This document shows, piece after piece, positions 1 through 18,083 of a stretch of DNA of 18,083 nt. The notes beneath the pieces were generated by a model. It was given only the letters and a program-made list of their open reading frames with translations. It was not told the DNA's origin and made no database searches. Position 1 is the first letter of the stretch. The number at the start of each line of letters is the position of its first letter. The DNA lies in the IMG/VR virus record IMGVR_UViG_2651869755_000020; one strand, written 5' to 3'. The position numbers and the translations under genes were made by a program. The DNA is from a virus. Taxonomy: Duplodnaviria; Heunggongvirae; Uroviricota; Caudoviricetes.

Positions 1-162
1 CCAGAGCCTGAGCCATTTGAAAATAACATTATCATTGACGCCATTTTCACGTGCAATCTGTGCAACACAAGCTCCAGGTTGTGATGCCAGTTCCACCATA
101 CGAAGTTTGAATTCATTCGAATAGTTTTTACGAGGTTCTTTTCGCCAGTCCTGTAATTCCAT
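1..162 (-). CDS. IS-type transposase helper protein (HTH_Tnp_1 / IS66-family TnpA-like), N-terminal 54 codons only; gene continues past the left window edge
   Basis: Reverse-strand ATG at 160-162 opens a frame translating MELQDWRKEPRKNYSNEFKLRMVELASQPGACVAQIARENGVNDNVIFKWLRLW, which stays open to position 1. The pattern (R.YS.EFK...V.....PGA.V..IAR..GV.DN....W) matches the helix-turn-helix OrfA/TnpA proteins of IS66/IS3-type elements as I recall them. Not in the supplied ORF track because it is truncated by the window edge. Confidence 0.45.
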   Translation of the reverse strand, partial: MELQDWRKEPRKNYSNEFKLRMVELASQPGACVAQIARENGVNDNVIFKWLRLW

Positions 163-215
163 ACTTAGATGTCCGTCTATATCAGATGGGCGTCTAAGTT
201 ACCAATTCTCGTCTG

Positions 216-1346
216 ATGGCTACATACGGCGGTCAGTTTACGCTTACTTTTAAAGCCGGTACTCATACCGATATGCACGGCAAAAAACTGCCGTTCACGC
301 CAGACGATCTTGCCGCCTGCGTGAAAGCCTATGACCCGTCCGTCCATGAAGCACCACTCGTGATTGGTCATCCCAGAACGGAAGACCCGGCGTGGGGCTG
401 GGTGAAAGCCCTGTCGCTCAGCGGCGTCGATCTGATGGCAGAGCCTGCCCAGCTGGACCCGCAGTTTGCTGAGATGGTCACCGACGGACGATTCAAAAAA
501 GTGTCCGCCTCTTTCTACCTCCCGGATTCACCGTCCAATCCGAAGCCCGGCGTGCTCTACCTTCGCCATGTGGGCTTTCTCGGGGCACAGCCACCTTCCA
601 TCAAGGGGCTGAAACAGGTGTCCTTCAGTGAGCAGGAAGAAGGTGTGGTGGAGTTCGCCGACTGGCAGGCCATCACGAATGCCTCCCTGTGGGGAAAGCT
701 GCGCGATTTTCTGATCGCCCGCTTCAGTCTGGACGAGGCAGAAAAAGTCCTGCCGGAATGGCAGCTCAACAGTCTGCGCGAAGAGGCGTACCGCGACACA
801 CTGTCGCAGGATGCAGCAGGTGCACAATTCAGTGAGACAGGCCCGGGGCCGTCTTCCGCAAGTAACGAGGAATCATCGATGACAAAAGAAGAGATTGAAA
901 CCCTTCAGGAGGAGAACCGCCGCCTGAAGCAGCAGGCTGCTGATCGCGATGCGCGTGATGCACAGGTCAGACAGGAGCAACTGCATAAGGACAATGTGGC
1001 CTTTGCAGAAAAACTGGTCGCAGAGGGCCGTCTGGCTCCCCGCGCCTCCTCCGTGGTGGTTGCCCTGCTGGATGCCGTCGCCGGTGGCGACAAGCCGGTG
1101 GAGTTTGCTGAGGGGGAAAGCCGCACACCGCTGGCCACCGCCTTTCGTTCATTGCTCTCCGACGGGGAGCCGGTGATGAATTTCGCCGAACAGGCCACAA
1201 AAGAGCGTGTCGGCGACACGGTGAAGGTGGATGTGGCAGAGTTTGCGGAAGCCGATCCTGAGCGTCTGGCCCTGCATCAGAAAGCAGTGGCCCTGTCCAA
1301 AAAAGAAGGCATCAGCTATGAGGCTGCTGTCGCACGCTGCCTGTAA
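216..1346 (+). CDS. prohead protease / scaffold protein (Mu gpI-like)
   Basis: 376-aa ORF directly upstream of the major head gene. C-terminal third is strongly charged and coiled-coil-like (EEIETLQEENRRLKQQAADRDARDAQVRQEQL), typical of scaffold domains fused to a protease. No obvious Shine-Dalgarno before the ATG at 216, so the exact start is uncertain. Confidence 0.7.
   Translation: MATYGGQFTLTFKAGTHTDMHGKKLPFTPDDLAACVKAYDPSVHEAPLVIGHPRTEDPAWGWVKALSLSGVDLMAEPAQLDPQFAEMVTDGRFKKVSASFYLPDSPSNPKPGVLYLRHVGFLGAQPPSIKGLKQVSFSEQEEGVVEFADWQAITNASLWGKLRDFLIARFSLDEAEKVLPEWQLNSLREEAYRDTLSQDAAGAQFSETGPGPSSASNEESSMTKEEIETLQEENRRLKQQAADRDARDAQVRQEQLHKDNVAFAEKLVAEGRLAPRASSVVVALLDAVAGGDKPVEFAEGESRTPLATAFRSLLSDGEPVMNFAEQATKERVGDTVKVDVAEFAEADPERLALHQKAVALSKKEGISYEAAVARCL
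879..1346 (+). CDS. possible nested in-frame scaffold protein (Mu Z-like internal initiation)
   Basis: In-frame ATG at 879 preceded by GAGG at 867-870 (8-nt spacing). It sits exactly at the start of the charged coiled-coil segment (MTKEEIETLQEENRRLK...). Mu I/Z and lambda C/Nu3 use the same nested arrangement. Confidence 0.35.
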   Translation: MTKEEIETLQEENRRLKQQAADRDARDAQVRQEQLHKDNVAFAEKLVAEGRLAPRASSVVVALLDAVAGGDKPVEFAEGESRTPLATAFRSLLSDGEPVMNFAEQATKERVGDTVKVDVAEFAEADPERLALHQKAVALSKKEGISYEAAVARCL

Positions 1347-1360
1347 TTTAAGGAGAGAGC

Positions 1361-2314
1361 ATGTCTGATTACTTAAAAGGTAAACGTGTCGTTGATCCGG
1401 TACTGACCAGTATCGCCCGTGGCTATAAAAATGCCGCATTCATCGGCGAACGTATTTTCCCCGTCGTGCTGACGGACAAGGAAGGCGTGCGTGTACCGAC
1501 CTTCGGGAAAACCGCCTTTGTGGAATATGACACCGAGCGTGCCGTCGGGGCGGACAGCAATGTTCTGGTCCGTGAAAAAACAGGCACGCTGGACCTGGTG
1601 CTGGGTGAACACGATCTGGCTGCGCCGGTGGACTATCGCGAGCAGGCGGAGTCCATGTTTAACGAAGAGAGCAAGGCCATCCGTCGCGCCACGAATGGCG
1701 TGAACCTGCGCCGTGAACTTATCGCTGCCCGTCTGGCTCAGGATGAAAAGGTCTACCGTACCGGGCACGTCAAAAAACTGACAGCCAGTGATCGCTGGGC
1801 CGGTGGTAAGGGGGACCCCATCGGGGTGATTGAAGCCGGTATGGAAGCGGTCCGTACGGCCACGGGGCTGCGTCCTAACCTGATGACCATGGGGGCCGGC
1901 GTGATGGCGCTGCTGAAGTTCCACCCGGCGATTCAGGCCGCCATCGGAGCCAACGAACGCAAGCGCATCACCACAGAAATCCTGCAGGACCTCTTTCAGA
2001 TCGAAGAGATCGTCATCGGTGCCCCAGTCTCCCTGCCGTCCATGAAAGCGGCAATGGATAAGAACAGCGTGCCGGCGGATATCTGGGGAGACAATCTGAT
2101 GCTGCACTATGTCGGCAAACCGCAGCCGGGGGCGGACAGCGCGGACGAGAACGAGCCGTCCTTCGGCTACACCCTGCGTCGTAAGGGGATGCCTGTTGCC
2201 GACAAATACGACGGAGCCGGTGGCAAGGTGAAGTACTGCCGTTATACCGATATCTACAAAGTCGCCGTGGTTGGTGGCGATGCCGGGTATCTCATTACCG
2301 GTATCAGTAAATAA
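1361..2314 (+). CDS. major capsid (head) protein, Mu gpT-like
   Basis: 317-aa ORF with AAGGAG RBS upstream of the ATG at 1361, immediately after the protease/scaffold gene. Size and position match Mu-type major head subunits. Family assignment from recollection, not searched. Confidence 0.75.
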   Translation: MSDYLKGKRVVDPVLTSIARGYKNAAFIGERIFPVVLTDKEGVRVPTFGKTAFVEYDTERAVGADSNVLVREKTGTLDLVLGEHDLAAPVDYREQAESMFNEESKAIRRATNGVNLRRELIAARLAQDEKVYRTGHVKKLTASDRWAGGKGDPIGVIEAGMEAVRTATGLRPNLMTMGAGVMALLKFHPAIQAAIGANERKRITTEILQDLFQIEEIVIGAPVSLPSMKAAMDKNSVPADIWGDNLMLHYVGKPQPGADSADENEPSFGYTLRRKGMPVADKYDGAGGKVKYCRYTDIYKVAVVGGDAGYLITGISK

Positions 2315-6144: not shown

Positions 6145-6480
6145 ATGTCACAGACCCCATCCGATACTTTTAAATTGTCTTATCCCTTCACCACTGCTGC
6201 AGGCACCAGAATTGAGCTGGTTGAACTGAAACGCCTGACGGTAAAAGACCTGAAGCAGGTGCGCAAAATCAGCAAAAACCCGGCAGACTGGGACGAACCG
6301 CTGATTGCCCGCAGTACTGGTCTTCTCCCGGAAGATCTCGACAATATGGATCTGGCTGATTACCTGCAGTTACAGAAACGATTTCAGCTCATCACGGGGA
6401 TGGGTGAGAGCAACCAGGGCGCTGACGCAGGCGCAGGGGCTGCTGGCGAGATGGTTCCGGTTTCAGCCGGGGGAGATTGA
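6145..6480 (+). CDS. tail assembly chaperone (position equivalent to lambda G / P2 E / Mu gp41)
   Basis: 111-aa ORF with AGGAG RBS 8 nt upstream, located between the tube and tape measure genes. Acidic protein, as expected for tape-measure chaperones. Confidence 0.6.
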   Translation: MSQTPSDTFKLSYPFTTAAGTRIELVELKRLTVKDLKQVRKISKNPADWDEPLIARSTGLLPEDLDNMDLADYLQLQKRFQLITGMGESNQGADAGAGAAGEMVPVSAGGD

Positions 6481-6562
6481 TGCCCTCGATACTGACGATC
6501 TGGAGATGTGGCTGGAGCAGGCTGAAGAGCAAATCAAAAGCGAGTACGGCGACAAATCATAG
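6305..6562 (+). CDS. overlapping second frame; candidate frameshift extension of the tail assembly chaperone
   Basis: Open frame overlapping 6305-6480 in the +1 frame relative to the chaperone and continuing 27 codons beyond its stop (...RFQPGEIDALDTDDLEMWLEQAEEQIKSEYGDKS). Protein-like acidic tail. Position matches the conserved chaperone frameshift of tailed phages. Confidence 0.35.
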   Translation: MPAVLVFSRKISTIWIWLITCSYRNDFSSSRGWVRATRALTQAQGLLARWFRFQPGEIDALDTDDLEMWLEQAEEQIKSEYGDKS

Positions 6563-6637: not shown

Positions 6638-9600
6638 ATGTCGGGACAGTTTTCAGTCGGCGTTGTTATCGGCGGGATGATTGGCAGCACATTCCGTTCT
6701 GCAATGAGCGGTACCCGCCGTGCGCTTGATTCCCTGAGCGATACCTCACGCCGCCTGCAGGAACGTCAGAACGCTTTAACCCGTGCAACAGAACGTTATG
6801 GTCAACTGGGTTCTTCCCGGATGCAGCATCTCAACAGCGAGCTGCTGCGGGTAAGCCGCACCATGGAGCAAATTGAGCGCCAGCAGCGCCGTCTGTCAGC
6901 GGCATCCGCTACCAGTGATGCGCTGAAAGCTAACCGCATGGCGCTGTATGGTCAGGGGATTGAAGCGTATGGCATGGCACAGACTGTTTATCATACGGTT
7001 TCCCCTGCCGTTCAGCAGTCCATGTCTTTTCAGGACAAAATGATTGATATGTCGATCACCGCAAAATATGACAATAAAACGCGGGATGCACTTGCCGGAC
7101 AGATAAAAGGCTGGGCGCTTAAATACAATCAGTATCAGGATGAGCTGCAGGAGGCGGTGGGTTCACTCATCAGCGACAATATTGATAATGTGTCAGATAT
7201 CGGTTTTCTGATGCCGGATATTGCCCGCGCGGCAACGGCAACACGCACGTCTGCTCAGGACTGGGCAAAAGTGGCCGCAGTCTGGCAAAACTCCCTGAAA
7301 GGTGCGGCCAGAGATTTTGGTGCCGTTCAGAATATTATGGCTTATGCCGGTGACCAGGGGTCATTTGAAATCCCGGATCAGGTCAAGTGGATGCAGTCCC
7401 TGGCCCCAATGATGGCGGGTCTTGCCAGTGGAAAAGAGGCTGTTGCTGAAATCGGGGCCAGTCTCCAGATAGCAAAAATCGGTGCAGGTTCCACCGACGA
7501 AGCAGCCAATAATTTTAAAAACTTTCTTACCAAAATTTTTGCCCGCGATACTCAGAAACAGTTTGCTGATCTGGGTATTGATTTGCAGGGATCTATTGCG
7601 AGTTATAAAGCTGCGGGGATCTCTCCGATTGAAGGGATGTTGAGTGTTATAGAACGTTACCTCAATGCCAAAAGCCCCGAAGCGCTGGCCGGCTTCAAAT
7701 CAGCCATGAAAATAAAGAATGATACGGCAAGAGATGAGGCACTTCAGGCTCTGGCGAAAAACTTTGGTCTGGGCGATATGTTCGCGGATATGCAGGTCAT
7801 GGCATTTATCCGCCCGATGCTGGCCAACATGGACAGATATCGAGAGATCCGTGCCGGTGCTCTCAGGGCTGCGGATAACGATTTGCTTGCCAGTGCTTAT
7901 GATCAGCGGCTGAAATCTCCCCTTGAAGCCACTAAAACACTTATGGTCAGCAGTCGCGATCTGGCAATTACGCTGGGCGATCAATTAGCTCCATCTTTTA
8001 TTTCTCTGACTCAGGAACTGCTCCCACTCATTCAGGGGACAAAACACTGGGTAGCGACTCACCCGCAATTTGTCAGTGGGGCTTTTAAGCTCATCAGTGC
8101 GCTCCTTGCGATTAAGATAGCGACTATTGGTCTCAAACTGGGGCTGAATCTCCTTATTTCCCCCTTTGTGAACGTCTGGAAAACTACTGTTTTACTCCGG
8201 ACCAACTGGCATCGACTGACTACCGCACTCGGAGAAGGTGGCAAATTACGCTGGCTTGTCACTGGATTCAGCCGACTGACCAGCGGAGGACTGAAACTCA
8301 GCAAAGTTCTGGCGGGCAGCCTCGTTCGCGGTTTTATGAGCGCTGCACGTGCCGTTCTCTGGATTGGGCGAGCGCTGATGATGAATCCCATCGGTCTCGT
8401 TATCACCGCTGTCGCGACAGCAGCTTACCTTATCTACCGCAACTGGGGGGCTGTCAGTGGTTGGTTTAAACAGCGCTGGGCTGACATTCAGGAAGCCTTT
8501 AACGGCGGCATTGTGGGAATTGGTAAGTTGCTGATTAACTGGTCGCCGGCAGGCCTGCTCTATAAAGCCTTTGCGGCTGCGCTGAAATATTTCGGCGTTG
8601 CTCTGCCGGCAAAGTTCACCGACTTCGGTGGCCATCTTATCGACGGTCTGATTAACGGTATCAAAAGCAAATGGGGGTCGCTCAAATCCAGTGTAACCGG
8701 AATGGGTGACAGCATCAGTAGCTGGTTTAAACAGCGCTGGGCTGACATTCAGGAAGCCTTTAACGGCGGCATTGTGGGAATTGGTAAGTTGCTGATTAAC
8801 TGGTCGCCGGCAGGCCTGCTCTATAAAGCCTTTGCGGCTGCGCTGAAATATTTCGGCGTTGCTCTGCCGGCAAAGTTCACCGACTTCGGTGGCCATCTTA
8901 TCGACGGTCTGATTAACGGTATCAAAAACAAATGGGGGTCGCTCAAATCCAGTGTAACCGGAATGGGTGACAGCATCAGTAGCTGGTTTAAACAGTGCTG
9001 GGCTGACATTCAGGAAGCCTTTAACGGCGGTATCGCGGGAACTGGTAAGCTGCTGATTAACTGGTCGCCGGCAGGTCTGCTCTATAAAGCCTTTGCAGCT
9101 GCGCTGAAATATCTTGGTGTTGATCTGCCGGCAAAGTTCACCGACTTCGGTGGCCATCTTGTCGACGGTCTGATTAACGGTATCAAAAACAAATGGGAGT
9201 CGCTCAAATCCAGTGTAACCGGAATGGGTGACAGCATCAGTGGCTGGTTCAGCGAAAAGCTGGGCATTCATTCGCCGAGCCGCGTGTTTATGGGCTTTGG
9301 TGACAATATCGCGCAGGGGGCCGCCATTGGCCTGCAGCGGACCACTCCGCTTGCAGCTCTGGCCGGGCAGCGAATGGCCAGTGAACTGCTCCCCAGAATG
9401 CCCGTGAGCATTCAGGGGCCAGAAATACGGGATAACACTTCAGGTGTTCGCTTCAGTATGCCGTTGCCCGATATCAATGGGTTTATGTCGTCTGCTAAAA
9501 ATGCGATCGGAGCCGTAATCAATAGTTTGTCTTCCATGCCCGTTATTCCGCTCTCCACCCGGGCATCGATTTTACCAGGGCAACGTCTGGCAAATGAGAT

Positions 9601-9850
9601 GACACCGGATGTTCCCCGTATCCCCTCGCCTGAAATCCTGGCTGCCGGATATTCAGGCCGTGGTGCAGCTGCAACCGGCGGTGGAACGTCTGGTGGTATC
9701 CAGGTCAGCTTTAATCCTCAGTTTTTCCTCAATGGCAGGGAAACCACAGCGCCTGCAGGACTGACTGGTGCCCTGAATATGAGTCTGCATGAGCTGGAAA
9801 AAATGCTGGAGCGTCTGCTGGCTCAGAAACAACGTAAGGAGTACCGCTGA
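6638..9850 (+). CDS. tail tape measure protein
   Basis: 1070-aa ORF with GGAGG RBS, the largest gene, directly downstream of the chaperone pair. Has a long helical N-terminal half and internal tandem repeats. Start of the downstream gene overlaps its stop. Confidence 0.9.
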   Translation: MSGQFSVGVVIGGMIGSTFRSAMSGTRRALDSLSDTSRRLQERQNALTRATERYGQLGSSRMQHLNSELLRVSRTMEQIERQQRRLSAASATSDALKANRMALYGQGIEAYGMAQTVYHTVSPAVQQSMSFQDKMIDMSITAKYDNKTRDALAGQIKGWALKYNQYQDELQEAVGSLISDNIDNVSDIGFLMPDIARAATATRTSAQDWAKVAAVWQNSLKGAARDFGAVQNIMAYAGDQGSFEIPDQVKWMQSLAPMMAGLASGKEAVAEIGASLQIAKIGAGSTDEAANNFKNFLTKIFARDTQKQFADLGIDLQGSIASYKAAGISPIEGMLSVIERYLNAKSPEALAGFKSAMKIKNDTARDEALQALAKNFGLGDMFADMQVMAFIRPMLANMDRYREIRAGALRAADNDLLASAYDQRLKSPLEATKTLMVSSRDLAITLGDQLAPSFISLTQELLPLIQGTKHWVATHPQFVSGAFKLISALLAIKIATIGLKLGLNLLISPFVNVWKTTVLLRTNWHRLTTALGEGGKLRWLVTGFSRLTSGGLKLSKVLAGSLVRGFMSAARAVLWIGRALMMNPIGLVITAVATAAYLIYRNWGAVSGWFKQRWADIQEAFNGGIVGIGKLLINWSPAGLLYKAFAAALKYFGVALPAKFTDFGGHLIDGLINGIKSKWGSLKSSVTGMGDSISSWFKQRWADIQEAFNGGIVGIGKLLINWSPAGLLYKAFAAALKYFGVALPAKFTDFGGHLIDGLINGIKNKWGSLKSSVTGMGDSISSWFKQCWADIQEAFNGGIAGTGKLLINWSPAGLLYKAFAAALKYLGVDLPAKFTDFGGHLVDGLINGIKNKWESLKSSVTGMGDSISGWFSEKLGIHSPSRVFMGFGDNIAQGAAIGLQRTTPLAALAGQRMASELLPRMPVSIQGPEIRDNTSGVRFSMPLPDINGFMSSAKNAIGAVINSLSSMPVIPLSTRASILPGQRLANEMTPDVPRIPSPEILAAGYSGRGAAATGGGTSGGIQVSFNPQFFLNGRETTAPAGLTGALNMSLHELEKMLERLLAQKQRKEYR
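8462..9244 (+). repeat. three tandem 261-bp (87-codon) in-frame repeats inside the tape measure gene
   Basis: Unit begins TGGTTTAAACAGCGCTGGGCTGACATTCAGGAAGCC at 8462, 8723 and 8984. Copies 1 and 2 differ at a single base (AAAAGC vs AAAAAC). Copy 3 carries about a dozen substitutions. Confidence 0.9.
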
Positions 9851-14195: not shown

Positions 14196-14766
14196 GCCAT
14201 TACAACTCCCGCCACCGCTTGAGGGTGATATCAGTCTCAGGACGCTGGGAAGACTGGCAGGGCGGCTGGATAACATCGACCTGAGCGTACTGATGGTCTT
14301 TCTCGTCGATATCGTCGACAGTTCTGCGCTGCCATGGCTGGGCGAGCAGTTCTCACTGTCTGGCGATGGCTGGGAGCTGGCGGAATCGGACGATGTTCGC
14401 CGCATGCTTATAAAAGCAGCCATCGAACTACACCGGTATAAAGGGACGCCGTGGTCAATCCGGGAAGTTATCCGCCGTTTTGGCTTTGGTGAAGTGGATC
14501 TGATTGAAGGCACAGGTCGTCTCAGTTACGACGGCAATCGCAGCTATAACGGACTGTTTGTTCATGGAGATGCAGCCGCCTGGGCGGTTTATCGCGTTAT
14601 TCTGAAACAGCCCATTACTAACGATCAGGCCGCGATGCTGCGTCAGACGCTCGCTGCATTTGCACCGGCCCGCTGCCATCTGGCCAGCCTGGAGTATCAG
14701 TCTGTGGCCATTCGCTATAACAATACCGCCATCCATGATGGCAGTTATAACCACGGGAGCAGTTGA
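14188..14766 (+). CDS. baseplate/tail protein I-like (Mu gp48 position)
   Basis: ATG at 14188 (MTEPLQLPPPLEGD...) is in frame with the track ORF that begins at GTG 14176. It overlaps the upstream stop by 8 nt. 192 aa, immediately before the tail fiber gene as in P2 (I-H) and Mu (R-S). Confidence 0.65.
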   Translation: MTEPLQLPPPLEGDISLRTLGRLAGRLDNIDLSVLMVFLVDIVDSSALPWLGEQFSLSGDGWELAESDDVRRMLIKAAIELHRYKGTPWSIREVIRRFGFGEVDLIEGTGRLSYDGNRSYNGLFVHGDAAAWAVYRVILKQPITNDQAAMLRQTLAAFAPARCHLASLEYQSVAIRYNNTAIHDGSYNHGSS

Positions 14767-14768
14767 TT

Positions 14769-16391
14769 ATGGGAAACCTGAATGAAACAGAAAAGTGGGA
14801 AGAAAAAATCTATCAACTGGAGACATCAGATCCGGTTCTGGGTGGTGCTGACGGGATATCAAATCGAGCCCCCCGGCAACTGGCAAACAGGACGAAATGG
14901 CTGAAGAAAAAAACGGAGGAAGCCGCACAGTCACTGGCTGAACACGTACGTTCCCGTAACCACCCGGACGCGACACTGACAGCTAAGGGGTTCACCCAAC
15001 TGAGCAGTGCCACCAACAGCACCTCTGAAACGCTGGCCGCCACACCAAAAGCCGTCAAGGCTGCATACGACCTTGCAGCCGGCAAGGCACCCGTCAGTCA
15101 CACTCACCCGTGGAGTCAGATAACGGGAGTGCCTGCTGCCTCGCTGACGGCAAAAGGCACCGTACAGCTGAGCAGTGCCACGGACAGTCAATCAGAAACT
15201 GAGGCTGCCACGCCGAAGGCTGTGAAAATCGCGTATGATCTGGCCCGGGGAAAATACACAGCCCAGGATGCAACAACGACCCGTAAAGGGATCGTACAAC
15301 TGAGCAGTGCCACCAACAGCACCTCTGAAACGCTGGCCGCCACACCAAAGGCCGTCAAGGCTGCATATGACCTGGCTGCCGGCAAGGCCCCCGTCAGCCA
15401 CACTCACCCGTGGAGTCAGATAACGGGAGTGCCTGCTGCCTCGCTGACGGCAAAAGGCACCGTACAACTGAGCAGCGCCACGGACAGTCAATCAGAAACT
15501 GAGGCTGCCACGCCGAAGGCGGTCAAGGCTGCATACGACCTTGCAGCCGGCAAGGCGCCCGTCAGCCACACTCACCCGTGGAGTCAGATAACGGGAGTGC
15601 CTGCTGCCTCGCTGACGGCAAAAGGCACCATACAATTGAGCAGTGCCATCAACAGCACGTCTGAAATACTGGCCGCCACACCGAAAGCGGTCAAGGCTGC
15701 ATACGATCTGGCAAACGGAAAACAACCGGCAGATGCCACGCTCACTGCTCTGGCAGGACTTGCCACTGCAGCAGATCGGTTGCCTTATTTTACCGGAGCA
15801 GACCGCGCAGCGCTGGCAACCCTTACAGCTATTGGTCGCGCTATTATCGCTAAGGGCAGTATAAAAGATGTCCTCAATTACCTTGGTTTGGGGGAAGGCT
15901 CTGCACTGCCTGTTGGTGTGCCTGTTCCATGGCCCACCGCCACACCGCCAGCAGGCTGGTTAAAGTGCGACGGGCGCGCCTTTACAAAAGAACAATATCC
16001 TGTTCTGGCCAGAGTCTACCCGACCCTCCGTCTTCCCGATTTGCGCGGTGAGTTTATCCGTGGATGGGACGACGGGCGCAAAGTTGATACGGGGCGTTCA
16101 TTGCTAAGTGGTCAGGCTGCAACATTTATTCGTACAGCTTTGCAGGATTATTACGGTTACGATCTGAATACTAATGTCAAAGTAGGTATCGCTTTTGCTA
16201 CTGCTGATTCTGTTATAACCGTTGGAAACCCAGCTAATCCTAAAGCAGGAAAAAATAGCGATTATGTTCCTGCATCAGCAGATAACTCTATAACGGGTAT
16301 TCAAAGGACAGCGGAGGATAATTTTACCGGGGCATGGATATCAATGCGCCCCCGCAATGTTGCGTTTAATTACATCGTAAGGGCCGCATAA
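14769..16391 (+). CDS. tail fiber protein with internal phage-fiber repeats and a C-terminal collar-type receptor-binding domain
   Basis: 540-aa ORF from ATG 14769 (GGGAG RBS about 10 nt upstream; the track starts at TTG 14763). Five copies of the motif LTAKG-x-QLSSAT-x-S-x-SET-x-AATPKAVK-x-AYDLA, typical of lambda Stf / Mu S / P2 H fibers. C-terminal region (PWPTATPPAGWLKCDGRAF...LPDLRGEFIRGWDDGR) resembles the phage tail collar domain. Confidence 0.85.
   Translation: MGNLNETEKWEEKIYQLETSDPVLGGADGISNRAPRQLANRTKWLKKKTEEAAQSLAEHVRSRNHPDATLTAKGFTQLSSATNSTSETLAATPKAVKAAYDLAAGKAPVSHTHPWSQITGVPAASLTAKGTVQLSSATDSQSETEAATPKAVKIAYDLARGKYTAQDATTTRKGIVQLSSATNSTSETLAATPKAVKAAYDLAAGKAPVSHTHPWSQITGVPAASLTAKGTVQLSSATDSQSETEAATPKAVKAAYDLAAGKAPVSHTHPWSQITGVPAASLTAKGTIQLSSAINSTSEILAATPKAVKAAYDLANGKQPADATLTALAGLATAADRLPYFTGADRAALATLTAIGRAIIAKGSIKDVLNYLGLGEGSALPVGVPVPWPTATPPAGWLKCDGRAFTKEQYPVLARVYPTLRLPDLRGEFIRGWDDGRKVDTGRSLLSGQAATFIRTALQDYYGYDLNTNVKVGIAFATADSVITVGNPANPKAGKNSDYVPASADNSITGIQRTAEDNFTGAWISMRPRNVAFNYIVRAA
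14976..15720 (+). repeat. in-frame direct repeats inside the tail fiber gene (five fiber-repeat units; two about 220-bp stretches nearly identical)
   Basis: Units start near 14976, 15144, 15281, 15445 and 15613. Stretches beginning CAACTGAGCAGTGCCACCAACAGCACCTCTGAAACG at 14997 and 15298 remain near-identical for about 220 bp. Confidence 0.85.
15881..15922 (+). repeat. left inverted repeat of the invertible cassette; overlaps a hix/gix-like crossover site (about 15871-15896, core TT at 15883-15884)
   Basis: CCTTGGTTTGGGGGAAGGCTCTGCACTGCCTGTTGGTGTGCC. Its reverse complement matches 16416-16457 at 40 of 42 positions. The half-sites around the TT core resemble the 12-2-12 recombination sites of Hin/Gin/Cin/Pin invertases. 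Confidence 0.7.
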
Positions 16392-16415
16392 AAACGTTGG
16401 TTTAGGAGAAGGCTC

Positions 16416-16457
16416 GGCACACCAACAGGCAATGCAGAGCCTTCCCCCAAACCAACG
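16416..16457 (-). repeat. right inverted repeat of the invertible cassette (core AA at 16454-16455), about 65 bp upstream of the invertase start
   Basis: GGCACACCAACAGGCAATGCAGAGCCTTCCCCCAAACCAACG is the reverse complement of the left repeat with 2 mismatches. Placement next to the invertase gene mirrors gixR/gin and hixR/hin. Confidence 0.7.
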
Positions 16458-16521
16458 TTTATCTCTCAAATCCTCCCCACATTATCTCAGTACTTTAACC
16501 ACTCAAAAGGGAGTATTTTTA

Positions 16522-17094
16522 ATGCTGATTGGCTACATACGTGTGTCAACAAATGACCAAAACACAGATTTGCAACGCAATGCATTAATGTGCGCAGGAT
16601 GTGAACAGATTTTTGAGGACAAAATGAGCGGAACCAAGTCGGAACGACCAGGCCTGAAACGCGCTTTAAAGTGCCTTAAAAGAGGGGATACATTGGTGGT
16701 CTGGAAGCTGGATCGGTTGGGTAGAAGAATGAAACACCTCATTGCTCTCACAGAAGAGCTACGCGCAAAAGGTGTCAATTTTCGCAGTCTGACGGATTCA
16801 ATCGATACCAGCACTCCGATGGGAAGGTTCTTTTTTCATATGATGGGTGCACTGGCAGAAATGGAGCGTGAACTGATAGTTGAGCGCACGCTGGCAGGAC
16901 TGGCTGCTGCGCGAGCACAAGGAAGAGTTGGAGGACGTCGCCCGAAACTGACGAAGGAGCAGCATGAGCAGATCGCAAGATTGCTCCAGAAAGGGTATGA
17001 CAGAAAGCGGCTGGCAATTATCTATGATATTGGACTGTCAACGATCTACCGCTACCACCCTGTTGGGACTGTCATAACGCAACCTGAAATGTAA
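16522..17094 (+). CDS. site-specific DNA invertase, serine recombinase of the Gin/Pin/Cin/Hin family
   Basis: 190-aa ORF from ATG 16522 (AAAGGGAG RBS). Begins MLIGYIRVSTNDQNTDLQRNAL..., with GDTLVVWKLDRLGR and the C-terminal HTH, near-identical in pattern to Gin/Pin as recalled. The track start at 16432 adds 30 non-conserved residues and overlaps the inverted repeat, so it is rejected. Confidence 0.9.
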   Translation: MLIGYIRVSTNDQNTDLQRNALMCAGCEQIFEDKMSGTKSERPGLKRALKCLKRGDTLVVWKLDRLGRRMKHLIALTEELRAKGVNFRSLTDSIDTSTPMGRFFFHMMGALAEMERELIVERTLAGLAAARAQGRVGGRRPKLTKEQHEQIARLLQKGYDRKRLAIIYDIGLSTIYRYHPVGTVITQPEM

Positions 17095-17172
17095 TTCTTT
17101 TTCAAATAATGAAACGCCGCGTGGATGCCATTTATCGCACAAGATAGAGTGCATTTATCGCGCGGCGCATCA
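17095..17172 (+). mobile_element. putative right terminus (attR end) of the Mu-like prophage with repeated transposase-binding-like motifs
   Basis: Two copies of GCATTTATCGC (17128-17141 and 17149-17163). Terminal sequence ...TTTATCGCGCGGCGCATCA ends in CA and matches my recollection of the Mu right end (...TTTTTCGTGCGCCGCTTCA) at about 15 of 19 positions. Host prpR coding sequence begins immediately after. Confidence 0.5.
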
Positions 17173-17710
17173 CGTCGGCGGGCATCAGCCTGTTCCGGTA
17201 GATGTACGGGTCATTAGCGCCACTCACTGCAATCTGGAAGAAGATATGCAGCAAGGACGTTTTCGCCGTGATCTGTTTTATCGGCTGAGTATTTTGCGTC
17301 TGCAATTGCCACCACTGCGCGAGCGGGTGGCGGATATTCTTCCGCTGGCGGAAAGCTTTTTGAAAGTGTCTCTGGCGGCGCTCTCCGCCCCATTTTCTGC
17401 TGCATTACGCCAGGGGTTACAGGCAAGTGAAACTGTGCTGCTGCACTACGACTGGCCAAGCAATATTCGTGAACTGCGCAATATGATGGAACGACTGGCG
17501 CTGTTTTTAAGTGTGGAACCGACGCCGGATTTAACGCCGCAGTTTATGCAACTGCTACTGCCGGAACTGGCGCGCGAGTCGGCGAAAACTCCCGCTCCAC
17601 GCTTACTGACACCACAACAGGCACTGGAGAAATTTAATGGCGATAAAACAGCAGCGGCGAATTATTTAGGCATCAGCCGGACGACGTTCTGGCGGCGGCT
17701 GAAAAGCTGA
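17173..17710 (+). pseudogene. prpR: 3' fragment (about 180 codons) of the sigma-54-dependent propionate regulator gene, cut by the prophage insertion
   Basis: The frame translates from about 17173 as ...VGGHQPVPVDVRVISATHCNLEEDMQQGRFRRDLFYRL..., the conserved end of a sigma-54 activator AAA+ domain, then a C-terminal Fis-type HTH (NYLGISRTTFWRRLKS). The same frame upstream of about 17170 is not activator-like. Convergent yahO follows after 97 bp, as in the E. coli yahO-prpR arrangement I recall. Confidence 0.7.
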
Positions 17711-17712
17711 AC

Positions 17713-17743
17713 TGCCGAATGCAGCGCGAACGCTTTATCCGGC
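17713..17743. repeat. REP-like palindromic element between the convergent prpR and yahO genes
   Basis: Reverse complement reads GCCGGATAAAGCGTTCGCGCTGCATTCGGCA, resembling the E. coli REP consensus (GCCGGATAAGGCGTTTACGCCGCATCCGGCA-type). Confidence 0.4.
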
Positions 17744-17807
17744 ATAAATTTCAATAGATGATCACCGATAAACTTACGCATCGGAGATGTTTACATAGGA
17801 TTCAGAA

Positions 17808-18083
17808 TTACTTCTTCTTATAAATATTTGCCGTGCCGTGGATCTTATTGTCAGTTTGACCGGAGGTCAGTACCAACACATCAGCCCCTTTTTCATCCGC
17901 TTTTTTGATCAAATCTTCTTTTGCATCTGCAGTCGACATTTCATTGCTGGTTGAAATATCACCTATTTTTTCATACTGCGATTCAACTTTTTCAAATTCC
18001 GCTTTGGTCATCAATTCAGCGGCATAGACATTGGTAACGGCTAACGCTAACGCACCGACTAACATTTTAGAGATTATTTTCAT
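17808..18083 (-). CDS. yahO: small periplasmic DUF1471 (YdgH/BhsA/McbA-type) protein
   Basis: 91-aa ORF with signal peptide ([21 protein letters not shown]) and the C-terminal motif [26 protein letters not shown] typical of DUF1471 proteins. Matches my recollection of E. coli YahO. Start codon is the last three bases of the window. Confidence 0.85.

Follow-up and report, generated by a model that had tools for sequence, protein, structure and literature searches.

The stretch of DNA analyzed here, called the window, is 18,083 nt long and comes from the IMG/VR virus record IMGVR_UViG_2651869755_000020 (Caudoviricetes). The open reading frame under study is annotated at positions 216-1346; its 5' end lies in an insertion sequence (IS) and it is followed by a major capsid protein gene. 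The features of the region are listed below; structural features are predictions from the AlphaFold model (pTM only 0.34) of the native protein, which is nearly identical.

1-247, minus strand: terminal 247 nt of ISEc23 (IS66 family, full element 2,532 bp), identified from translation, RefSeq annotation, the inverted repeat and uninterrupted alleles
162-1, minus strand: 5' part of ISEc23 tnpA, identified from translation
about 224-247: terminal inverted repeat of ISEc23, ending ...CAGTTTACGCTTAC (31 nt, 84% complementary)
216-1346, plus strand: annotated ORF of 376 aa, chimeric, with codons 1-11 from the IS and the phage gene from native codon 7 on
216-247, plus strand: IS-derived start and bases for MATYGGQFTL plus two bases of T11, in place of native MSAIHI
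248-255: 8-bp target-site duplication TTTTAAAG, the other copy lying left of the IS, outside the window
249-581, plus strand: beta-rich N-terminal domain, putative prohead protease (native residues 7-117, AlphaFold pLDDT 70-92)
804-878, plus strand: predicted disordered linker, variable in sequence and length, ending at the internal start (native residues ~192-217, pLDDT <50)
867-870, plus strand: Shine-Dalgarno core GAGG, 8 nt upstream of ATG 879 (pairing -5.9 kcal/mol)
879-1346, plus strand: nested in-frame scaffold ORF, 155 aa, 16.9 kDa, putative counterpart of BcepMu gp33, B3 ORF36Z, RcapMu40 and Mu Z
885-1022, plus strand: long charged helix, putative scaffold coiled coil (native residues 219-264, AlphaFold secondary structure)
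1361-2314, plus strand: major capsid protein gene (PHROG 1005 'major head protein', E 9.3e-130; Pfam Phage_cap_E)

A profile search assigned the protein to PHROG 976, 'head maturation protease' (E 8.5e-163, residues 1-370 covered), and tblastn gave 48.5% identity to BcepMu gp32 over residues 4-366, 98% of the length. Identity to the protein of Escherichia phage PhiKM (Bcepmuvirus) was 99.5%. No family was matched when the native protein was compared with Pfam and NCBIfam, permissive thresholds included, and a PDB sequence search with the protein at E up to 1 gave no match. The gene order in three annotated loci (L001, L002 and L006) is portal, F-like, G-like, protease-scaffold gene and capsid; the position in the head module, with a Mu G-like gene, a spacer of ~200 nt, the protease-scaffold gene and the major capsid gene, matches that in BcepMu, RcapMu and B3. 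On the strength of homology and gene order, the gene is assigned to a transposable E. coli prophage, a BcepMu-like myovirus (Bcepmuvirus), as its prohead protease-scaffold gene. The major capsid protein, whose gene is preceded by a strong Shine-Dalgarno sequence (AAGGAGA, pairing -9.2 kcal/mol), would be the substrate and partner of the putative protease and scaffold. Some database relatives carry the name 'GPO family capsid scaffolding protein', and in some PHROG 976 members a cement-protein gene is found between the protease-scaffold gene and the major capsid gene.

The protease-scaffold gene occurs in ~630 complete E. coli genomes and the IS junction in only 5; the exact ISEc23/gene junction was found in 5/5,426 complete genomes. 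RefSeq lists ORF 216-1346 as WP_021572719.1, a 'hypothetical protein' of 376 aa. In E. coli records the product is named 'hypothetical protein' or 'peptidase' and the nested gene is unannotated.

The N-terminal domain contains an invariant H47 (in GHP), an invariant S92 and a near-invariant S94, all three candidate catalytic residues. Foldseek comparison with predicted viral structures gave significant matches to proteins named capsid maturation or prohead protease (1e-8 to 4e-4). Against the PDB no match was obtained at E 0.001 or better; the best for the whole model was the KSHV protease, which was non-significant (E 0.038, probability 0.8). The alignment columns ahead of the internal start consist mostly of gaps, and the predicted helix 219-264 begins two residues past the methionine of that start.

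Analysis of the 5' end showed that it belongs to ISEc23. The RefSeq record NZ_CP091756, which is 100% identical, carries tnpA, tnpB and an ISEc23-family transposase, the three genes of an IS66 element. The inverted-repeat ends of ISEc23 read GTAAGCGT..., the repeats beginning with GTAAGCG. The element is like other IS66-family members in its three ORFs, 8-bp target duplication, terminal repeats and length of 2,532 bp, and its sole special point is the in-frame ATG in the outward-facing end. Copies of TTTTAAAG flank the IS in L002 (3708-3715 and 6248-6255), and a single copy is present in the uninterrupted allele L001; ISEc23 entered 17 nt into the gene, duplicating these 8 bp. The original prediction had described an IS-like element just upstream of the gene; the element is indeed there, but it runs on into the ORF, to base 247, overlapping it by 32 nt, so that codons 1-11 (MATYGGQFTLT), the start ATG 216 among them, are IS sequence joined in frame to the phage gene.

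The uninterrupted alleles from the ~630 E. coli genomes match the window only from base 248 on, many of them at 100%. The uninterrupted gene encodes 371 aa, starts with MSAIHIFKAG and has its start codon 17 nt upstream of the junction. The N-terminus in the uninterrupted E. coli alleles and in PhiKM is MSAIHIFKAGTHT, compared with MATYGGQFTLTFKAGTHT in the window ORF, and none of the relatives that were checked shares the N-terminus of the window copy. The native pattern M-x-x-x-H-I-F-K-x-G-T is not present in this copy: in the first beta-strand, L and T stand in place of H5, which is at least 90% conserved, and I6, which does not vary among 36 relatives. The native start, the six leading codons and the 214-nt upstream spacer have been displaced by 2.5 kb, beyond the window. 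The suspicion that an insertion had altered the 5' end was therefore well founded, and the change is larger than had been supposed. The earlier observation that ATG 216 has no recognizable Shine-Dalgarno sequence also held: the upstream sequence is aagttaccaattctcgtctg, with a predicted 16S pairing of -0.1 kcal/mol. Pipelines call ORF 216-1346 because the IS end contains an ATG that by chance is in frame with the gene; judged from the alleles, the annotated ATG 216 is an artefact of the IS insertion. The altered N-terminus is a lesion of the window copy and no ground for excluding this copy from the BcepMu gp32 family.

The native start itself showed weak Shine-Dalgarno pairing (-4.0 kcal/mol), and the median at 5' starts across homologues (-1.7 kcal/mol) was that of the background. 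The spacer before the gene has a median length of 198 nt across homologues; in the native allele it contains two terminator-like hairpins 3' of the G-like gene. A sigma-70 scan of the native spacer gave nothing useful, and the same scan found no promoter-like sites in window 1-1400 on either strand, IS end included. Such empty scans are expected if the late promoter is activator-dependent, and by analogy with Mu the 214-nt native spacer may hold a late promoter like P_I. No intrinsic terminator was found on the plus strand within the IS; transcripts from the displaced promoter could thus run through the element, and the genes beyond it still be expressed.

These data have to be weighed against the possibility that ATG 216 works as a replacement start, reached by read-through or IS-borne transcription, giving an active chimera with which heads are still built. 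The fusion is in frame, past the junction the gene matches intact alleles at 100% identity, and the plus strand of the IS holds no terminator-like site. The weakness of the native start and of PHROG 976 5' starts, which are generally without a Shine-Dalgarno sequence, means that the gene may tolerate initiation without one. We nevertheless regard a working replacement start as unlikely: pairing at ATG 216 is practically nil, promoter-like sites are missing from window 1-1400, two residues of the first beta-strand are changed and the allele is rare (5 of ~630 carriers). In addition, the prophage has lost its tail-fibre assembly region, which suggests decay. Quite improbable, too, is the further-reaching proposal that the outward end of ISEc23 supplies a portable start codon, with the read-through chimera still an active protease and the prophage viable; it would be helped by a family-wide full-length start independent of Shine-Dalgarno pairing, with the strong internal start setting a low protease:scaffold ratio.

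Elsewhere in this prophage, the inside of the invertible tail-fibre segment is gone.

The preferred reading, an IS-truncated protease-scaffold gene, includes a second start within the gene. An in-frame ATG at 879 with a GAGG ribosome binding site had been pointed out in the original prediction and was found as described (879-216 = 663 nt, or 221 codons). In the window sequence alone this combination is no more than chance would give. Among 25 in-frame ATG, GTG and TTG codons, pairing is stronger at GTG 618 (-6.8 kcal/mol), GTG 1173 (-6.9) and ATG 1176 (-7.3), and GTG 996 pairs equally well (-5.9). Single-sequence statistics were rejected as evidence for ATG 879, since several in-frame starts pair as well or better; only comparison of homologues singles it out.

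For this comparison 114 non-redundant homologues were used (<90% mutual identity, down to ~41% identity to the query, from several phyla). An ATG or GTG was found at the equivalent alignment position in 113/114, and in the identical column in 108; the codon was ATG in 39 sequences and GTG in 74-75, depending on the column window counted. A start codon together with a Shine-Dalgarno sequence of the GGAG/GAGG/AGGAG type was present at this position in 92-94% of the 114 genes, compared with a fraction of at most 0.34, and mostly below 0.2, elsewhere in the gene. The median pairing was -7.7 kcal/mol at the internal start and -2.5 kcal/mol at background positions of the same genes. The internal start was stronger than the 5' start in 86% of genes (Wilcoxon p = 9e-16); the homologues being related, this value and the counts above overstate independence. 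The closest enterobacterial group (~74% identity) has a weak internal Shine-Dalgarno sequence, AGAGAA, at ~-3 kcal/mol.

These results support the internal start as a real, conserved feature, and the proposal of a probable scaffold-only start within the gene gains from them. Its placement at the beginning of a charged coiled-coil segment also agrees with the model, which puts the predicted boundary between linker and helix there; in the short product, 42% of residues 1-50 are D, E, K or R.

The corresponding position carries an annotated nested gene in BcepMu (gp33, 'Mu Z equivalent') and in RcapMu (RcapMu40). In B3 ORF36Z is an annotated nested gene, for which our own alignment gave no placement. 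Nested genes have also been described in KS10 (gp28/gp29; PMC2628397) and in PaMx73 (PMC4378225). The JBD30 paper holds no data on nested starts.

The conserved Met or Val and the purine stretch before it could also be read as a feature of the protein, for instance an acidic motif of the linker or a site of maturation cleavage; any short product would then arise by proteolysis. E-E, Q-E or K-E often stand just upstream and T-P-E-E downstream, which is readable as a peptide motif, and prohead proteases such as P2 gpO cut themselves and their scaffolds (PMC7552001). The codons speak against this. The codon is start-capable in 113 of the 114 sequences, and where the residue is Val it is encoded by GTG in 74/74 cases, as against 40% of the Val codons in these genes (naive probability 10^-32.6, which overstates independence because the homologues are mutually related). 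Moreover, the purine motif stays at Shine-Dalgarno spacing even though the residues it encodes differ (EE, QE, KE, KGD, EGE, KEG), and Mu Z is annotated with a start internal to gene I. A feature acting at the protein level is thus very unlikely. Still less credit can be given to ribosome pausing between the protease domain and the scaffold domain as an aid to folding: the Shine-Dalgarno-like motif does lie within the predicted disordered inter-domain linker, yet a pause needs neither a start codon 6-10 nt downstream (113/114) nor Val codons restricted to GTG. Finally, that ORF 216-1346 is the native gene with the IS merely upstream, as the uninterrupted ORF and its RefSeq annotation might suggest, is refuted by the uninterrupted alleles, which diverge upstream of base 248 and have another N-terminus, and by the target duplication at 248-255 and the inverted repeat at 224-247, which put the IS end inside the ORF.

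The closest known system is gp32/gp33 of BcepMu, with homology over the full length, the same PHROG and the same position between Mu G-like and capsid genes. The GTG start of gp33 aligns with ATG 879, and the short products are of 156 aa (gp33) and 155 aa (window). The two differ in the start codon, GTG versus ATG, and in the six leading codons and upstream region, which in the window are ISEc23. The gp32 family also includes phiE255 gp7, B3 ORF36/ORF36Z, RcapMu39/40, KS10 gp28/gp29 and PhiKM.

The original prediction had likened the gene to I/Z of Mu and C/Nu3 of lambda. The nested arrangement bears this out; a common sequence family does not. Phage Mu has the same order of portal, F, G, ~200-nt spacer, I/Z and capsid with a nested in-frame start, and the same pattern of a strong internal and a poor 5' start, Z being preceded by AGGAG with a 9-nt spacer and I by a poorly spaced motif. 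Mu gpI has 361 aa and the native protein 371 aa; Z starts at residue 179/361 and the internal start described here at residue 217/371. Membership in the Mu gpI family was dropped, however: the protein gave no match to Pfam PF10123 (Mu-like_Pro) at E up to 10, where Mu gpI scores 2.3e-98, and comparison with Mu gpI gave nothing by BLASTP (E >1) and a probability of 0.1% by hhalign. A distant link at the level of fold was seen with a 'COG4388 Mu-like prophage I' model (Foldseek E 5e-5). As far as sequence can tell, Mu I/Z resembles this gene in arrangement alone. SuMu was set aside as not relevant, its protein being a true Mu gpI homologue.

In lambda, the scaffold gene Nu3 is nested in frame at the 3' end of C, which encodes the protease. 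No sequence-family link to C/Nu3 was seen, on the basis that the protein matched no protease family in Pfam. The gpO protein of P2 is processed by self-cleavage. It is a single chain with protease and scaffold parts, as is predicted for the full-length protein here, comprising an N-terminal protease, a middle region and a C-terminal scaffold domain, and the S107A mutant is protease-deficient (PMC7552001). A weak hhalign match to gpO (E 0.0024, probability only 12%) aligned H47 with gpO H48, S94 with gpO S107 and YDP with FDP. The protein was not matched by PF05929, the Pfam family of gpO, and the P2 record lists O as a single CDS with no annotated nested internal start.

Taken together, we put the probability at roughly 85% that this is a BcepMu-like protease-scaffold gene with a 5' end truncated by ISEc23 and a conserved nested scaffold start. 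By analogy with Mu I/Z, lambda C/Nu3 and P2 gpO, the intact gene would give two products from one frame. The full-length product (371 aa, 40.5 kDa), comprising the protease domain, linker and scaffold domain, would be initiated with little or no Shine-Dalgarno pairing, and the scaffold-only product (155 aa, 16.9 kDa) from an internal ATG or GTG with a good Shine-Dalgarno sequence at the end of the disordered linker. Through the C-terminal part that both products share, a small number of protease molecules may be brought into a procapsid that forms around abundant scaffold. In this scheme we infer the use of both starts, the proteolytic activity and the late promoter.

In the IS allele the full-length protease is likely to be made poorly or not at all, because ATG 216 has no Shine-Dalgarno sequence and no nearby promoter and because H5 and I6 are replaced. 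Since the chimera keeps the frame and is intact apart from its 5' end, some active protease may still be made at a low level. The internal start is intact in sequence, yet its use probably requires read-through transcripts. Head assembly is probably defective in this prophage.

The chimeric 376-aa 'hypothetical protein' in RefSeq deserves a flag as IS-disrupted, and in the ~630 E. coli genomes and in PhiKM the intact alleles could carry the annotation of a protease with a nested scaffold. The arrangement is ordinary and already understood, the nested gene being annotated in BcepMu, B3, RcapMu and KS10, and no result on ORF 216-1346 overturns current understanding. What the comparison adds is that an arrangement hitherto annotated case by case now has numbers, in the conservation of the start (113/114), the exclusive use of GTG for Val and the weakness of the 5' starts. 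The conserved pattern of starts fits translation signals that would set the protease-to-scaffold ratio.

The gene under study, which encodes a putative prohead protease/scaffold protein, was compared with databases through its native protein, the 371-aa product of the uninterrupted allele. This protein matched PHROG 976, "head maturation protease", over its whole length (E 8.5e-163), and the 155 residues from the internal Met matched the C-terminal part of the same profile. Its identity was 99.5% with a PhiKM protein (Escherichia phage, genus Bcepmuvirus), 48-50% with BcepMu gp32 and phiE255 gp7, and 35-38% with RcapMu39 and B3 ORF36. The gene lies downstream from genes of the DUF935 portal, Mu F-like and Mu G-like types; the major capsid gene (PHROG 1005) comes next, then a cement-protein gene, followed by head-completion and contractile-tail genes. 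From these protein matches and neighbouring genes, the window contains the late region of a transposable myovirus prophage of BcepMu type, and sequence similarity places the protease/scaffold gene in the BcepMu gp32/gp33 family.

The original prediction pointed to an in-frame ATG at 879 with a GAGG ribosome binding site. GAGG is present at 867-870, 8 nt upstream from the ATG, with a predicted Shine-Dalgarno pairing of -5.9 kcal/mol. Within the window sequence alone this combination is unremarkable: pairing is stronger at in-frame GTG 618, GTG 1173 and ATG 1176, and equal at GTG 996.

Homologous loci with DNA were taken from GTDB genomes and IMG/VR; 161 complete genes were extracted and reduced to 114 representatives, mutually less than 90% identical. 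In 113/114, the position of ATG 879 had an in-frame ATG (39) or GTG (74-75, according to the columns included in the count), in the identical alignment column for 108 of the 114, with GGAG, GAGG or AGGAG upstream at Shine-Dalgarno spacing. The only exception was B3, which is misaligned by a long insertion and whose GenBank record annotates a nested ORF36Z. A start with a Shine-Dalgarno occurred within 12 columns of this position in a fraction of 0.92-0.94 of the sequences, and elsewhere in the gene in no more than 0.34, mostly below 0.2. All Val codons at the position were GTG (74/74), against a GTG share of only 40% among the Val codons of this gene set; a naive calculation gives a probability of 10^-32.6, which is overstated, since the sequences are related. 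The residues encoded upstream from the start vary (EE, QE, KE, KGD, EGE...) and the linker before it aligns mostly as gaps; therefore, it is the nucleotide signal that is conserved. This comparison of sequences is decisive evidence for a conserved internal start; the short product predicted from it is 156 aa long at the median. Enterobacterial loci L114, L098, L099, L100 and L015 (~74% identity) keep an internal ATG at the conserved position, with a Shine-Dalgarno (AGAGAA, ~-3 kcal/mol) far weaker than that of other homologues.

An AlphaFold model was obtained for a near-identical native protein (P0001; 36-sequence alignment, mean pLDDT 66.8, pTM 0.34), with the following predicted regions.

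Predicted regions of the native protein (AlphaFold)
Residues 1-117: beta-rich N-terminal domain, pLDDT 70-92
Residues 118-145: disordered stretch
Residues 146-191: three helices
Residues 192-217: disordered linker
Residues 219-264: long helix, with further helices after it

The internal Met, residue 217 in the native protein and 222 in the window ORF, falls exactly at the junction between linker and long helix in the model, in agreement with its proposed location at the beginning of the C-terminal segment.

Membership in the Mu gpI family was ruled out: PF10123 gave no match to the native protein at E up to 10 (Mu gpI itself scores 2.3e-98), and BLASTP and hhalign against Mu gpI were both negative. 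The arrangement is like the nested I/Z of Mu, as had been suggested, but the likeness is one of analogy and not of homology. NCBIfam and PDB sequence searches with the native protein returned nothing. A weak hhalign match to P2 gpO (E 0.0024, probability 12%) is suggestive only; it pairs the invariant GHP His47 with gpO His48 and Ser94 with gpO Ser107, whose replacement by Ala abolishes gpO protease activity (PMC7552001). In Foldseek searches the top PDB match, KSHV protease (assemblin), was not significant (E 0.038). Among predicted viral structures, proteins with prohead protease or capsid maturation protease in their names matched significantly, and there was a distant match to a "COG4388 Mu-like prophage I protein". 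The modelled protease domain probably has the common prohead-protease fold, its catalytic residues being candidates only, and by analogy the gene probably works like Mu I/Z.

The 5' end of the ORF was examined by searching 5,426 complete E. coli genomes with window 1-1500 (megablast). The full 1,500 bases matched in a handful of genomes, and ~630 genomes, many 100% identical, matched from base 248 onward only. E. coli record NZ_CP091756 is identical to the window across 1-1500, and its upstream genes are annotated as IS66-like tnpA, tnpB and ISEc23-family transposase; the window minus strand 162..1, upstream from the ORF, encodes MELQDWRKEPRKNYSNEFKLRMVELASQPG...

The uninterrupted sequence (L001, strain EBJ003) was set against both IS flanks of the IS-bearing locus, L002. 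It reads ...gggacagcaaaATGTCAGCCATTCACATTTTTAAAGCCGGTACT... at the insertion site, the left flank ...ATGTCAGCCATTCACATTTTTAAAG|GTAAGCGTCAACGG... and the right flank, which is that of the window, ...CAGTTTACGCTTAC|TTTTAAAGCCGGTACT... The IS is 2,532 bp long with imperfect terminal inverted repeats (GTAAGCGTCAAC... and GTAAGCGTAAAC...); these and the 8-bp target duplication are hallmarks of the IS66 family, to which the element is assigned.

Features at the 5' end
216-1346, plus strand: protease/scaffold ORF, 376 aa
248-255: 8-bp target duplication TTTTAAAG, flanking the IS in L002 (compared with L001)

From the junctions and the duplication, ATG 216 and the next 29 bases are therefore IS sequence. 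An IS-like sequence had been placed just upstream from the ORF; it is an ISEc23-type IS66 element, but its end lies inside the ORF. The suspected alteration of the 5' end was borne out, as native MSAIHI, which precedes FKAGTHT, is replaced by IS-derived MATYGGQFTLT, and the native start, left of the IS, retains a 22-codon stub (MSAIHIFKGKRQRSTVLTLIYW*). By sequence comparison the annotated start differs from the native start. The exact junction was found in 5/5,426 complete genomes, leaving out a sixth listed match made of two pieces spanning 585 bp; the allele is rare and derived.

Intact relatives have a non-coding spacer of ~200 nt 5' of the gene (L001, 214 nt; median, 198 nt). In Mu, the late promoter P_I lies in the corresponding spacer. 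Homologues and Mu typically have ~200 nt here, and the L001 spacer contains two terminator-like hairpins after the Mu G-like gene (L001 3752-3769 and 3835-3848, outside the window), which suggests that a separate late transcript starts there. The IS has displaced this spacer by 2.5 kb to the upstream side, together with the native start and six codons. A scan of both strands of window 1-1400, which covers the IS end, gave no sigma-70-like site. The IS genes are oriented opposite to the protease/scaffold gene. No plus-strand terminator-like site was found inside the IS, so read-through may occur. Any full-length product would now lack a Shine-Dalgarno; the absence of a recognisable one at ATG 216, as originally described, was reproduced (-0.1 kcal/mol). 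In the first beta-strand the window allele has L for H5, which is at least 90% conserved, and T for I6, which does not vary among 36 relatives. The internal start and all downstream sequence are unchanged.

Other features of the prophage and its flank
6145-6480: tail assembly chaperone gene (Phage_TAC_7)
6305-6562: second ORF, overlapping the chaperone gene
6638-9850: tape-measure gene, 3' of the overlapping pair
14763/14769-16391: tail-fibre gene, 5' neighbour of the crossover sites
Within 16392-16460: two inverted copies of AAACGTTGGTTT..., Gin/Cin-type serine invertase crossover sites, 57 bp apart
16432-17094: Gin/Cin-type serine invertase gene (Resolvase + HTH_7)
17246-17710: sigma-54-dependent regulator, 5'-truncated (AAA_lid_14 + HTH_8; RefSeq note "missing N-terminus")
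17808-18083, minus strand: yahO

In E. coli KS21 the crossover sites are 1,615 bp apart and enclose an invertible segment, which carries a gene for tail-fibre assembly as well as alternative fibre tips. The inside of this segment is lost in the window and NZ_CP091756 prophages, a second lesion pointing to a defective prophage; with the IS insertion, it makes the window prophage most likely a decaying, defective copy.

The tail-fibre gene encodes 542 aa in the window (14763-16391) and 640 aa in NZ_CP091756 (L169 14769-16691), otherwise near-identical; the difference falls in the Phage_fiber_2 repeat region, so repeat number varies between strains with the same IS allele. Within ~17100-18083, the right end of the prophage adjoins the truncated regulator, with yahO beside it, which places the prophage within a host regulator gene. 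In other strains, closely related prophages are flanked by different genes (aldolase, upaG, yjjI), a pattern expected of a transposable phage. The chaperone/ORF overlap (6145-6562) is the usual layout for a candidate programmed translational frameshift pair.

The nested protease/scaffold arrangement is already known. GenBank records annotate BcepMu gp33 as "nested... Mu Z equivalent", RcapMu40 with "start site internal to RcapMu39" and Mu Z as starting inside gene I, and KS10 has overlapping features gp28 and gp29 at the equivalent place. An internal Val start with a Shine-Dalgarno has been described for the protease-scaffold gene of Pseudomonas Mu-like phages (PaMx73 paper; PMC4378225). The window gene is a further, unannotated example of this arrangement, interrupted by an ordinary IS insertion.

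At the 5' start of 111 genes, median pairing was -1.7 kcal/mol, no better than at random in-gene positions (-2.5). The internal start had a median of -7.7 kcal/mol and paired more strongly than the 5' start in 86% of the genes (Wilcoxon p = 9e-16). For the native E. coli start, pairing is -4.0 kcal/mol (GGGA). Since 5' pairing is weak across homologues, the lack of a clear ribosome binding site is partly a native family trait. Mu is similar: Z is preceded by AGGAG with a 9-nt spacer, and at I the spacing is poor. We infer that this asymmetry between the two starts would yield little protease and much scaffold.
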